IMG/VR virus record: IMGVR_UViG_3300016476_000292
Location: 3,063-67,062 of that record
Length of the DNA: 64,000 nucleotides
Strand: one strand, 5' to 3'
Origin: a virus
Lineage: Duplodnaviria; Caudoviricetes
Shown here: positions 25,004 to 52,953 of the stretch, piece by piece
Position numbering within the stretch: the first letter of the stretch is position 1
Layout: each line of letters starts with the position of its first letter
Program-made: the position numbers and the translations under genes
The notes under the pieces: model-generated
Seen by the model: the letters and a program-made list of their open reading frames with translations, nothing else
Told to the model about the DNA's origin: nothing
Databases searched by the model: none

Positions 25004-25496
25004 AGTTGTTGTTCTTCAATCTATTTTGTTTTGCTGGTATTACCTGCAAGTTTTCTGGCACATGCAGCCCAGAAACGGCTTTTCCTTGCAGCGGCACAAT
25101 ATGGTCTACGTGATAGTCAAAGCCAACCCGTTTCAACGCATCCCTGTACAAATACACACAACTAATCTCAAACCAATGTCCTTTATTCAGCCAATTCGGC
25201 GTAGCCTGCAATTTGACCGCCCGGTACTTGGCTTTATTTGCAAGCACCCTTGCAGCATGTTTCTGCCTAGTTTTCCTAGATGATTCTGCCGCTCTTTCAG
25301 GATGCCTTTTTCTCCACTCTTGCGTTCTTTTTACAGTTTTTTCTGGATACCGCTCGGCATATCGCTTGTTCTGCTCCGCCCATTTCTCAGGATTCGCTGC
25401 GCGCCACTCTTTTACCCTTTGATAAGCCTTCTCCCGGTTACGCTGGGCGTAAGCTTTTTGATATGCTTTCCTAGCCTCTGGGTCTTTAAGTGGCAT
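24993..25496 (-). CDS. Free-standing HNH homing endonuclease
   Basis: YHVDHIVPLQGKAVSGLHVPENLQVIPAKQN; AT-richer than its neighbours. Confidence 0.85.
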   Translation of the reverse strand: MPLKDPEARKAYQKAYAQRNREKAYQRVKEWRAANPEKWAEQNKRYAERYPEKTVKRTQEWRKRHPERAAESSRKTRQKHAARVLANKAKYRAVKLQATPNWLNKGHWFEISCVYLYRDALKRVGFDYHVDHIVPLQGKAVSGLHVPENLQVIPAKQNRLKNNNYAQ

Positions 25497-36767: not shown

Positions 36768-39140
36768 TTAGTAGTAAACGCGCCTGCGCGGCAAGCCCAT
36801 GGGCTCATCTTCCTCGTCCGACCCAAGCCGCAAGAATCCACCCTGCCGGAATCGCATCAAAGCCTGAACGCCGGAGTCAACCAAGTCATCATGTTCCGCG
36901 TTCGGGAACCTGGCAAACTCCTCAATCACCTCTTGCGCCCACCGGGTGTCGGGTGCCCACACTTTACCGGAAGAAAATAGGTCTGTAACGCTGTTCAAAC
37001 GCACGAATTTGTCGTTCCCTCGCGTCGGAGTGAAGTCCTGAACCATAACACCCATCCTTCTCAGCTCAAATATCAGCGGTGCACCCGCCGCCTTGGCTTC
37101 AATGATGCAAGCATCCGGCTCCCACTCGTCATACAGCTCTTTGGCCTTGGCTTTCAGGTCAGGAAACTCGACTTTCCCCTTCCAAGCGTCCAGCAAAATG
37201 ATGTTTACGTCGTTTTCGTCCTCGTCCTTGTGGAAAACCCCCCACGTAGTACAGGCCGAATAGTCACTTCGCTGGTTTTTTGTGTACGCCGTGTCCCAAG
37301 ATTGGATGATGAACTCGCATGGCGGGGCTCGATCCCCCTCATAAACCTGCCACCAGTCCCTTTTTACCAGTGCACCCTCTTCTCCAGTGGGCTTTTGCTG
37401 GTACTGAGCGTTCCATTTGTACGGCGGAAGCTCTTCTTTCAGGGCTAACAGCTCGTCTATCGGCCAAAACTCAGGCCAAAGGCTGTTTCCGCTCGGTAAA
37501 ATTGCCGGGAATTCGATGACTTCCCACTCCGTCGCGTCTGATTTCAGTACTCTGCCGGTCAAATCCTTGTCTGACCAGCGGGTATTGTGGCTTACAACCC
37601 CATTTGCTATGAAGTTTTCGGTTCTATCTACCTCAACGTCAAATACTTCCTCTTTGCCATCATAAGTTATTGCCGCTATCGGATCCGCCGTGAAGTCGGA
37701 GATACGATGCAGCTCGCTCAAGAATGCTTGGCGTCTTCCCATATCCAACGGCAAGGTTGCAGTCATTGCAGAGCAGCCCTCTGACTTTGCCGGTTTCATG
37801 GGAATGGTCGATGCAGAGCTTGCCATTCCAGTAGGCGCGTGTATTGTTGCTAGTTGGCGGCTGACCACATACGTCGCAAAGGTTATTGCGCTCCTTAACC
37901 ATTGCTTCGTACTGTTCAACAGTGATCCCATACCGGTGTTTGAGTCGGTGTTTTCTGGCTTCCTCTGATGATTTTTTAGGAATGTATTCTTGCCTGTAAT
38001 GGTTGGCACACAATCCACGGCTTGTAACATGCCTGTTGCACCCTTCAACACTACATTCAACGCCCTTCCACTTCCCGTGGCTGCCAAGTGGGCGATACGG
38101 TGCATCAGGGTTCTTGCGGTGGTAGCTGTCTTTTGCCTGACATGGCCCGCACTTTCCGGGCTTTGTTTTTGACCTAGATTGCCTGTTGCACCCTTCAACG
38201 ATACAAGTAAATCCCCCACTCGTAGCTGATTTAGCCTTGTCCATTCCAGCACTCCTTCGTTCATCACAAGAAACGGATGTCTCTCGTTTGCACGAAGAAT
38301 CTTACCAGATTGTGTTCGTATCTTATATATGGAATCAACACCACTTGACCGCCAGTTATTGATCTTGCTGACCGACAGCCTTCCTTTGTCAAAGGTTGCG
38401 ACAACATCGCCCGGCCGGATGTCGCGCAAAGGTTTTTCAGTGCCATCGTGCATCAGGACTGGCGTATCGCCGGTCATGCACATCACGATGACAATCGCTC
38501 CTCCAGGCTGTAAACGTTGCCGAGGCCCGGAGGTATACCACTCGTACACGCTATCAAATACAGACGGATCCCCTTGTGCCAATCTGGCTTCTTGTTCTGA
38601 GTGGGGGTCGTCAATAATGAGCAAATCCGCGCCTTTACCAGTAATAATTCCGCCGACGCCGATAGCAAAGTAATCGCCATTGTGGCTAGTGTTCCATCGT
38701 CCAGCCGCTTTTGAATCTGTTCTTAGGCCCACCCCTGGAAAAATCTTTGCGTATTGCTCGCTGTCTACAAGGTTCCTAACCTTACGACCAAACCCCACCG
38801 CCAGTTCGGCCGTGTTGGATGCCTGAATAATCTTCTTATTAGGGTGGTTCCCCAGATACCACGCCGGCAGCATGAAGGAAGCAAACTCAGATTTCGTATG
38901 TCGCGGCGGCATATTAATGATCAGCCGCTTCAACTTCCCTTCCGCTATCTCCTCAAACTTTTTGGCCATGATAGCGTGGTGCCGGCCATGAATAAAGCCC
39001 GGCCACATCTCATTTACAAAAGCCATGAACTTCTTCTGAGCTTTTTCCCGGACAACGGCGTCCTTGTATTGGCTCACCTGCTCCAGCAGTTTCTCCTGCT
39101 CAGCCGGCGGAAGCTTGGATATCAGTTCACTCAAGTCCAT
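36768..39140 (-). CDS. terL: Terminase large subunit interrupted by an intein (precursor 790 aa; spliced ~491 aa)
   Basis: INMPPRHTKSE Walker A region, LIIDDPH Walker B, IVIVM/TRW split by the intein, nuclease IQSWDTA and HDDLVDS. Confidence 0.95.
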   Translation of the reverse strand: MDLSELISKLPPAEQEKLLEQVSQYKDAVVREKAQKKFMAFVNEMWPGFIHGRHHAIMAKKFEEIAEGKLKRLIINMPPRHTKSEFASFMLPAWYLGNHPNKKIIQASNTAELAVGFGRKVRNLVDSEQYAKIFPGVGLRTDSKAAGRWNTSHNGDYFAIGVGGIITGKGADLLIIDDPHSEQEARLAQGDPSVFDSVYEWYTSGPRQRLQPGGAIVIVMCMTGDTPVLMHDGTEKPLRDIRPGDVVATFDKGRLSVSKINNWRSSGVDSIYKIRTQSGKILRANERHPFLVMNEGVLEWTRLNQLRVGDLLVSLKGATGNLGQKQSPESAGHVRQKTATTARTLMHRIAHLAATGSGRALNVVLKGATGMLQAVDCVPTITGKNTFLKNHQRKPENTDSNTGMGSLLNSTKQWLRSAITFATYVVSRQLATIHAPTGMASSASTIPMKPAKSEGCSAMTATLPLDMGRRQAFLSELHRISDFTADPIAAITYDGKEEVFDVEVDRTENFIANGVVSHNTRWSDKDLTGRVLKSDATEWEVIEFPAILPSGNSLWPEFWPIDELLALKEELPPYKWNAQYQQKPTGEEGALVKRDWWQVYEGDRAPPCEFIIQSWDTAYTKNQRSDYSACTTWGVFHKDEDENDVNIILLDAWKGKVEFPDLKAKAKELYDEWEPDACIIEAKAAGAPLIFELRRMGVMVQDFTPTRGNDKFVRLNSVTDLFSSGKVWAPDTRWAQEVIEEFARFPNAEHDDLVDSGVQALMRFRQGGFLRLGSDEEDEPMGLPRRRVYY
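37584..38480 (-). mobile_element. Intein (299 aa) in TerL at the IVIVM/TRW site
   Basis: Starts C(MTGDTPV), block B ANERHPF, block F VFDVEV..TENFIANG, ends VVSHN followed by +1 Thr. Confidence 0.95.
37660..38244 (-). CDS. Endonuclease VII-family homing endonuclease overprinted in the -1 frame inside the intein
   Basis: HRYGITVEQYEAM...CDVCG...CIDHSHETGKVRGLLCNDCNLAVG; two CxVEGCNR repeats; AAGGAG 7 nt upstream of the ATG. Confidence 0.9.
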   Translation of the reverse strand: MDKAKSATSGGFTCIVEGCNRQSRSKTKPGKCGPCQAKDSYHRKNPDAPYRPLGSHGKWKGVECSVEGCNRHVTSRGLCANHYRQEYIPKKSSEEARKHRLKHRYGITVEQYEAMVKERNNLCDVCGQPPTSNNTRAYWNGKLCIDHSHETGKVRGLLCNDCNLAVGYGKTPSILERAASYLRLHGGSDSGNNL

Positions 39141-52422: not shown

Positions 52423-52953
52423 CTACGATCTCCAGTCCGACTGATCCCAGTTGCCTTTGCCGTGGTTGCATTCATGGCACAGGATCTGAAGGTTAGACAG
52501 CTCCAGCGCCAGTTCTGGGAATAGCTTGCGCGGTTTGATGTGATCCACATTCATGACCGCCCCAGTGGCCGGCGTAGCACCGCAGCACATGCACTTCGGC
52601 CCGTACTTCTTCAAAGCTTCCATGCGTACCTTGCGCCATTCGTAGGTGCTGAGAAAAGAATCTCCTGCCACAAATGCCAGCGTTTTGGGATTGCTCTGCT
52701 TTTTCTTTGGCTTAGGTTTTGGTGGGGGTTGATAAGGCTTTGAGTCCACATGCAGTCGCGCCTCCGCTGCTATGTGTTCTATATTTTTTTCCACCCACGC
52801 TTTTGGTTTGTAGCTTCCTGGTTTTGGATAGCCATCCATGGCCAAGACCTTGCAACCCAAGTCATACGGACTTACGCCATTCTTTGCGCCGTATCCCAGC
52901 TTGCGCTTGATGTACCGAGACAGCATTGCCATCCCAATTTTTGCCGCTCCCAT
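52423..52953 (-). CDS. HNH endonuclease
   Basis: KCMCCG...MNVDHIKPRKLFPELALELSNLQILCHECNHGK. Confidence 0.85.
   Translation of the reverse strand: MGAAKIGMAMLSRYIKRKLGYGAKNGVSPYDLGCKVLAMDGYPKPGSYKPKAWVEKNIEHIAAEARLHVDSKPYQPPPKPKPKKKQSNPKTLAFVAGDSFLSTYEWRKVRMEALKKYGPKCMCCGATPATGAVMNVDHIKPRKLFPELALELSNLQILCHECNHGKGNWDQSDWRS

Follow-up and report, generated by a model that had tools for sequence, protein, structure and literature searches.

The closest described relatives of the element studied here are inteins in the large terminase subunit (TerL) of actinobacteriophages. In the TerL of such phages, Angelicage and its relatives among them, Gosselin, Arsenault and Gogarten reported endonuclease VII-like homing endonucleases encoded in reading frame 3 with respect to the intein, showed that the in-frame center of these inteins is unstructured, and proposed that a free-standing nuclease gene had invaded the intein (bioRxiv 10.1101/2025.01.02.630785). 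We analyzed an intein in the terL gene of a complete 67-kb freshwater virus of ~52% GC (IMG/VR record IMGVR_UViG_3300016476_000292), whose sequence derives from a metagenome assembly. The window is the whole 64,000-nt stretch of this record that was examined; all coordinates are window positions, and all features of the terL locus are on the minus strand. We consider it highly likely that the element is a mobile intein of the TerL6-f type, lodged in the ATPase C-motif between VM and TRW, whose homing endonuclease is encoded not by an in-frame domain but by a gene of its own, overprinted in the −1 frame.

A known design in a new setting

The window intein shares with the actinophage TerL inteins its host gene and insertion point (VM or IQ, followed by an intein running from C to SHN, followed by TRW), homologous Hint halves (CMTGDTPVLM at the start and TENFIANG.VSHN at the end), a homologous nuclease (50% identity to that of Angelicage and 42% to that of Phlyer), the same frame offset (+2, 'frame 3') and an unstructured in-frame center. 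Since the Hint halves, nuclease, site and frame all correspond, the window element belongs to that known kind. The design itself is therefore not new, having been described in 2025 for actinobacteriophage TerL inteins (bioRxiv 10.1101/2025.01.02.630785). Compared to the actinophage members, the window nuclease is longer at its N-terminus, where it carries two Cys-rich modules, and the carrier is a 52% GC freshwater virus with an extein like those of Proteobacteria phages. Specifically, the window TerL extein is nearest to the TerL of phages linked to Proteobacteria, not to that of actinophages. What we add is a non-actinophage member, a wide host range, selection evidence for each frame and a conserved ribosome-binding site. 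By a term search, the text of the preprint contains neither 'synonymous' nor 'metagenom', and 'purifying' occurs in its discussion only; to that extent, per-frame selection statistics and a survey reaching past PhagesDB both appear to be absent from it (bioRxiv 10.1101/2025.01.02.630785).

Three other systems share parts of this arrangement. The insertion site was named TerL6-f, in the ATPase coupling C-motif, by Kelley et al. (2016, mBio), who found that the Chandler gp6 intein splices efficiently in an MBP-intein-GFP reporter (PMC5050341). In the passages of that paper covered by a term search, TerL6-f is tested for splicing only and an out-of-frame nuclease goes unmentioned (PMC5050341). 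Chandler gp6 has the same class of insertion site as the window intein (the C-motif of a terminase_6-type TerL) and gave the same tblastn match as Phlyer, but its extein is only distantly related to ours. A second parallel is the hidden out-of-frame HNH of ShiLan, which lies inside a phage DNA methylase gene, starts with GTG and has no detectable ribosome-binding site, so that its translation was left as an open question (Arsenault et al., 2025, Genes; PMC11855218). As in the window, the ShiLan nuclease ORF (open reading frame) is overprinted in another frame and the host-gene frame is free of stops. However, the ShiLan insertion lacks a Hint or splicing domain, is thought to be tolerated as a loop and belongs to a different HNH family, while the window nuclease has a clear Shine-Dalgarno sequence and ATG. 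Finally, in the fractured genes of Dassa et al. (2009), as described in the preprint (bioRxiv 10.1101/2025.01.02.630785), a free-standing endonuclease gene sits between the halves of a split intein. This lodging of a nuclease gene between N and C splicing halves is, in the same account, the proposed evolutionary route, and it resembles the window. In fractured genes the two parts of the host gene are physically separate and are joined by trans-splicing, whereas in the window an open frame 0 keeps the intein in one piece.

A complete nuclease gene lies across a class-1 intein

The terL precursor ORF (36768-39140, from the ORF list) encodes 790 aa, intein included, and matches Pfam Terminase_6C (8e-12) and Intein_splicing (9e-17). 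Its 220-aa N-extein (38481-39140) ends in GGAIVIVM and its C-extein (36768-37583; 271 aa plus stop) begins with TRWSDKDL. Between them, translation and Pfam place a class-1 intein at 37584-38480 (897 nt, 299 aa, TerL residues 221-519), which opens with CMTGDTPVLM, carries RANERHPF in block B, closes with TENFIANGVVSHN and is followed by the Thr of TRW. The residues Cys1, His68 (in RANERHPF), His298-Asn299 and Thr+1 were invariant in 33 sequences; block B has Asn in place of the usual Thr, both here and in the actinophage homologues. PF14890 (Intein_splicing) matched the intein at E 5e-18. The profile match scored 65.8 bits against a cut-off of 35.8 and covered positions 3-155 of the 155 in the profile; it aligns to both intein ends and skips ~150 residues in the middle.

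The two ends and the middle also differ in conservation and predicted structure. The N-terminal Hint half (38196-38480; intein residues 1-95, blocks A and B) is conserved in the alignment, as is the C-terminal half (37584-37718; residues 255-299, blocks F and G, ending in TENFIANGVVSHN). The TerL-frame linker between them (37737-38183; residues 100-248) is poorly conserved, free of stops and predicted to be disordered. In an AlphaFold2 model built from the 33-sequence alignment, pLDDT (predicted local distance difference test score) was ~90 in the Hint halves (86-94 in the C-terminal half), while residues 100-248 scored ~30 and formed no secondary structure.

The same DNA encodes a second protein. 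The predicted Endonuclease VII/HNH homing-endonuclease ORF (37660-38244) is 194 aa plus stop and lies at offset 2, that is, in the −1 frame, relative to terL; its assignment draws on Pfam, selection statistics and AlphaFold2. Pfam PF02945 (Endonuclease_7) matched the ORF at 68 bits against a cut-off of 23.6 (E 6.8e-19; profile positions 2-81 of 82), and its translation holds YGIT..QY, CDVC, DHSH and RGLLCNDCN together with two C-x-VEGCNR motifs. The Pfam stretch, nuclease residues 99-183, marks the catalytic beta-beta-alpha-Me core (37696-37950), in which C123, C126, D146, H147, H149, C159, C162 and N163 are invariant in 33 sequences.

Upstream of this core are the two Cys-rich modules. The first (38140-38205) has the pattern C14-x4-C19...C32-x2-C35 with invariant cysteines and is likely a zinc- and DNA-binding module. 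The second (37996-38055) reads C64-x4-C69...C79-x2-H82-Y83, with C64, C69, C79 and Y83 invariant. Each contains one copy of a 26-nt direct repeat (38180-38205 in the first, 38030-38055 in the second; 92% identity, 20 nt exact), which underlies both C-x-VEGCNR motifs. The presence of such modules at the N-terminus suggests sequence-specific binding.

Structure comparison gave a similar assignment. The AlphaFold2 model of the nuclease (33-sequence alignment) had a mean pLDDT of 82, with 85-95 in the catalytic part. Against the PDB, Foldseek found no match to this model at E ≤ 0.001; T4 endonuclease VII was matched over the core only, with a probability of 0.99, an E value of 0.02 and a template modeling (TM) score of ~0.3, and Hpy99I was matched as well. 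We used these matches of weak E value and high probability only together with Pfam and with a profile search of PDB sequences, which retrieved T4 endonuclease VII and Hpy99I, both at ~2e-4. T4 endonuclease VII (gp49; PDB 1EN7, 1E7D) and Hpy99I have the beta-beta-alpha-Me core with CxxC...DHxH...CxxCN seen in the window nuclease, at ~25% identity and in the core only, and both lack the N-terminal Cys-rich modules. T4 gp49 is a structure-specific junction resolvase, not a homing enzyme. Judged by its sequence and modeled fold, the 194-aa ORF is an Endonuclease VII/HNH-family nuclease, with DNA cleavage a predicted activity.

A preliminary description of this locus, drawn up from the nucleotide sequence, had proposed a 299-aa TerL intein with intact Hint blocks at 37584-38480, motif-less filler between the blocks, a 194-aa −1-frame ORF with every Endonuclease VII motif named above, a 20-bp direct repeat at 38030 and 38180, and an AAGGAG at 38252-38257, 7 nt before the ATG and inside the N-E-G-V codons of the intein. 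Pfam and the translations bear out the intein and the nuclease, the low pLDDT and the selection values given below agree with the filler, the repeat amounts to 20 exact nt within 26, and the AAGGAG is at those positions.

The arrangement recurs in independent sequences

A tblastn search of cultured phages placed homologues of the nuclease inside the terL of phages of Gordonia and Mycobacterium. Angelicage was matched at E 4e-40 and Phlyer at E 2e-31, and parts of the sequence aligned at 73-80% nucleotide identity. In the three we checked, Gordonia phage Angelicage and Mycobacterium phages Phlyer and Vincenzo, the nuclease is at offset 2 from the annotated terL coding sequence, and both frames are open. 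IMG/VR yielded 227 relatives, of which the best 80 were counted. In all 80 the offset is the same, TerL is full length in its frame and the nuclease frame is open, at nuclease identities of 59-91% and extein identities of 45-100%. Intein lengths in relatives were 888-915 nt, every one a multiple of 3. A species-representative genome collection added 19 loci with the arrangement in bacterial genomes or metagenome-assembled genomes (MAGs), among them isolate contigs of Oribacterium, Dysosmobacter, Bradyrhizobium tropiciagri and Mycolicibacterium vanbaalenii. The isolate-genome contigs probably represent prophages of Firmicutes, Alphaproteobacteria and Actinobacteria. From these matches, the architecture is common in environmental viruses and extends to isolate genomes of Firmicutes and Alphaproteobacteria. 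In five free-standing relatives of the nuclease that lack Hint flanks, the +1 frame is closed.

These data bear on whether the overprinting is an artefact of assembly or sequencing, in which case the true allele would carry an in-frame Endonuclease VII domain and two compensating indels would have displaced it. In-frame HNH domains are known in inteins and the window comes from a metagenome assembly; an assembly indel had been raised as an objection in the preliminary description. However, the same offset with both frames open occurs in the 80 independently assembled contigs, the 19 genome or MAG loci and the three cultured phages, and the uniform multiples of 3 in intein length also speak against indels. 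Contigs from independent freshwater and aquaculture runs span the intein with zero indels, and those of one run, from another study, have 0 differences across 37611-38233. Moreover, a protein-database search for longer fused forms returned three proteins only, none of which reads the whole intein and the nuclease in a single frame; two of the three are N-extein/Hint-N/nuclease fusions that result from frameshifting deletions (contigs L189 and L190, discussed below). We give an artefact next to no credence. Disruption of the −1 ORF in homologues, also considered in that description, was not seen in the 80 IMG/VR relatives, the 19 genome or MAG loci or the three actinophages, where the ORF was intact throughout.

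MAGs that hold close relatives carry the bin labels Microbacteriaceae, Saccharimonadales, Geobacteraceae and Caulobacteraceae. The labels conflict with one another, and we did not use them for host assignment because the contigs are probably mis-binned phage sequences. Sequencing runs with small word shares were excluded from habitat inference.

Several of the collected loci have features of their own. The loci of two isolates of one series, Oribacterium sp. (L170) and Dysosmobacter sp. (L171), have identical match coordinates, identities and ORF boundaries, which suggests either a prophage common to both or cross-contamination of the assemblies. On a 911-kb contig of an uncultured Alphaproteobacteria MAG (L180:2635-3913), the N-extein and Hint-N share the frame of the nuclease, the remainder (Hint-C and C-extein) occupies the next one, and the nuclease frame is broken upstream at ~2683; this is probably a decaying prophage terL. 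In the intein-bearing relatives L031, L050, L052, L038 and L169, the terL open frames are 959-1261 aa long, 150-450 residues beyond the usual ~800, suggesting a second insertion (perhaps another intein) or fusion to an upstream gene.

Selection acts on different frames along the intein

We determined the ratio of nonsynonymous to synonymous substitution rates (dN/dS) in each frame for 60 distinct sequences, codon-aligned in the nuclease frame. In the center (nuclease codons 17-172), dN/dS was 0.12 for the nuclease frame, against 1.30 for that of TerL and 1.67 for the third. The value for the catalytic core of the nuclease was 0.09, in sequences that differ by up to ~40%. Pairwise nucleotide differences at nuclease codon positions 1, 2 and 3 of the center were 0.27, 0.20 and 0.55, the normal signature of a coding frame, while the TerL frame there behaves much like noncoding sequence (1.30 compared to 1.67 in the third-frame control). 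Over Hint-N, the constraint flips to the TerL frame: the first 16 nuclease codons gave 1.19 in the nuclease frame, 0.27 in the TerL frame and 0.78 in the third. Over Hint-C, constraint is moderate on both frames, with values of 0.44 (nuclease), 0.58 (TerL) and 1.86 (third) for the last 22 nuclease codons. The purifying selection that the preliminary description had expected in the center of the −1 frame is thus present, at 0.12 across the 60 homologues.

The TerL frame is nevertheless kept free of stops. None occurred in 60/60 sequences, compared to a mean of 14 in the third frame and means of 4 to 7 in the antisense frames. When we re-coded the window nuclease with the codon usage of the phage itself, the TerL frame was free of stops in only 2.6% of trials. 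Dipeptides that force a stop in the TerL frame (Met followed by I, M, T, N or K) were absent: there were 0 among 151 Met residues. From the per-frame dN/dS values and this avoidance of stops, we conclude that the center of the intein is selected as a nuclease gene and that frame 0 there is selected only against stops, remaining merely readable. Constraint therefore falls into three layers: the Hint ends in frame 0, the center in frame −1, and the center in frame 0 for avoidance of stops alone.

These statistics weigh heavily against the idea that the nuclease is a silent relic, left when a free-standing nuclease gene invaded a mini-intein and then lost expression, with its frame open by chance or through constraint on TerL. 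Pseudogenization is indeed named as a possible fate in the 2025 preprint (bioRxiv 10.1101/2025.01.02.630785). However, a relic would not be expected to hold a dN/dS of 0.12 (0.09 in the core) despite divergence of up to ~40%, nor 50 invariant alignment columns that include all zinc-ligand and catalytic residues. Constraint on TerL does not account for the open frame either, as the center has no amino acid constraint in the TerL frame (1.30), and the start signals described below are kept at synonymous sites. We regard a silent relic as very improbable.

A ribosome-binding site and start codon are kept at synonymous positions

The Shine-Dalgarno sequence AAGGAG (38252-38257) lies 7 nt before the nuclease ATG (38242-38244), and the ATG is formed by the last base of a Glu codon and the TG of the invariant Hint Trp codon. 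Among distinct relatives, the base that precedes this Trp codon is A in 58/60 and G in 2/60, and never C or T. The Glu codon before Trp is GAA 48 times and GAG once, although GAA makes up 51% of the background in the same genes. Four positions upstream, Gly is encoded by GGA in 47/59 relatives, against 21% in the background, and GGAG is found at −16 to −5 in 46/60, against 4.9% of random terL windows. In the mycobacteriophage homologues, the codon that overlaps Trp in this way is GTG. By these codon statistics, the Shine-Dalgarno sequence and start codon are preserved at synonymous sites.

We also considered a programmed −1 ribosomal frameshift inside Hint-N, which would yield an N-extein/Hint-N/Endonuclease VII fusion and dispense with a start of its own for the nuclease. 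The nuclease is read in the −1 frame of terL, 19 codons upstream of the ATG are open in that frame in the window, and L189 and L190 encode exactly such fusions, in their case through frameshifting deletions. However, a nuclease-frame stop lies within 4 codons upstream of the start in 34/60 loci and directly adjoins it in 9, the ATG or GTG and the Shine-Dalgarno sequence are held where the TerL protein would not demand it, and the first 16 nuclease codons are unconstrained in the nuclease frame. The start-codon, Shine-Dalgarno and upstream-stop statistics therefore favor independent initiation, and we think a programmed frameshift quite unlikely. Independent initiation also fits the proposal of the preliminary description that the nuclease is made independently of TerL splicing, although such translation would still be a prediction.

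The fusions themselves are of interest. In two divergent singleton metagenomic contigs (L189:273-2097 and L190:506-2756), a frameshifting deletion joins the N-extein and Hint-N in frame to a truncated Endonuclease VII (476 and 449 aa, respectively). The rest, Hint-C and the C-extein, is encoded by another ORF that overlaps the first and has an ATG of its own (L189:1309 and L190:1551). Such loci might represent genes that are broken, errors of assembly or TerL inteins that are split in nature, and they may be intermediates relative to the split inteins of fractured genes. If the phages are viable, they would have natural split TerL inteins with the nuclease on the N-half. A broader idea, which we hold to be rather unlikely yet worth stating, is that the dual-coding TerL intein is one ancient lineage whose two frames have been kept through >50% divergence across phages of several bacterial phyla and which still yields new architectures. 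Given viable phages, L189 and L190 would be living intermediates for the birth of split inteins and of in-frame HNH inteins.

Empty sites suggest a mobile element

We compared the 80 closest C-extein relatives (79-97% identity) for the presence of the intein. In 75 of these 80 TerL alleles the intein is missing and the N- and C-exteins abut with a gap of 0, leaving the empty site GTGATG/ACNCGCTGG, which encodes VM/TRW. In an extein tree, the well-supported 28-allele clade of the window consists of 25 intein-less alleles and 3 intein-bearing alleles on separate branches. Sequencing runs provided a second view: across window positions 37580-38481, contigs from runs X3 and X4 (freshwater and aquaculture) skip exactly the 897-nt intein and have ACG or ACA rather than ACC as the Thr+1 codon. 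Since the metagenomes of these contigs also hold the intein-bearing allele, both alleles coexist in one community. Taken as sequence patterns, these distributions make the element look mobile.

The empty alleles also address whether the nuclease serves packaging of the phage's own DNA instead of homing. T4 gp49 is an Endonuclease VII that debranches DNA before packaging, and HK97 gp74 is a terminase-associated HNH protein; the window nuclease belongs to the Endonuclease VII family and sits inside a terminase gene. However, the 75 intein-less alleles lack intein and nuclease together, with precise ends, and no Endonuclease VII homologue was found anywhere in 4 of 5 complete (CheckV 100%) intein-less relatives. 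The latter absence argues against an essential role in packaging. The patchy distribution inside one extein clade and the Cys-rich modules, with the sequence-specific binding that they suggest, likewise favor homing. A packaging role thus seems to us a slim prospect.

One complete intein-less relative (L191) has a distant, free-standing Endonuclease VII-like ORF far from terL (G001:C1:52811-53050; E 9e-10, 213-aa open frame). It is a possible source or sink for the nuclease gene of the intein.

A proposed model for splicing and homing

A model that accommodates these data is as follows. Ribosomes reading terL in frame 0 would make a precursor consisting of the N-extein, Hint-N, a ~150-residue disordered linker, Hint-C and the C-extein; the frame is open throughout and the linker is predicted to be disordered. 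The Hint halves would then associate and splice by the class-1 route, using Cys1, the block-B His, the terminal His-Asn and Thr+1, to release a working terminase. Splicing of the window intein is expected by analogy with the related Chandler gp6 intein, which has been spliced experimentally (PMC5050341). Other ribosomes would start at the internal Shine-Dalgarno sequence and ATG, which overlie the last Hint-N strands, and would produce the 194-aa Endonuclease VII/HNH nuclease, with its two Cys-rich modules, as a free protein. The nuclease protein, the Shine-Dalgarno sequence and the ATG are all under selection, from which we infer that the ORF is translated. In mixed infections, the nuclease would cut intein-less terL at or near GTGATG/ACNCGCTGG, and repair would copy in the intein together with the nuclease gene. 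This cutting and copying step, which is likewise a prediction, is based on the patchiness of the distribution, on empty sites that are exact and on the finding of both alleles together.

Several points temper this model. The Shine-Dalgarno sequence overlaps conserved Hint codons, and part of its conservation therefore comes from the protein, so that the argument rests on the synonymous positions. The dN/dS values are biased and approximate in overlapping frames, and the alignment was made in the nuclease frame. The sole intein contig from an RNA library (run X19, 208 nt) comes from a relative with 10 differences, covers Hint-N only and is uninformative as to nuclease expression. Intein-less alleles were sampled around the window's own clade, so that nothing follows for more distant clades, and precise losses could explain part of the patchy distribution. 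HNH homing enzymes often cut away from their insertion site, and the target of the predicted nuclease may differ from the one given above. Finally, translation of the ORF, splicing, cleavage and homing in this phage are what we infer rather than observe.

It is rare for overprinted genes to be under selection in both frames, and such cases illustrate how much information one stretch of DNA can carry. In this case the layers separate cleanly, as one frame specifies a folded enzyme and the other a readable, flexible tether between splicing halves. The locus supports the 'splicing first, nuclease later' view of intein mobility. It also bears on the published open question of how hidden nucleases are translated, since in this clade the Shine-Dalgarno sequence and start are preserved at synonymous sites, and it takes the architecture beyond actinobacteriophages, into freshwater viruses. 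The nested ORF escapes gene callers, and surveys that look for in-frame endonuclease domains only will wrongly class such elements as endonuclease-free or decaying inteins.

The virus genome contains a second, unrelated HNH-type nuclease, at window positions 52450-52593 on the minus strand (G000:C1:55512-55655; Pfam PF01844, 36.8 bits, 190-aa open frame). A weaker HNH-like match is present at 25038-25115.

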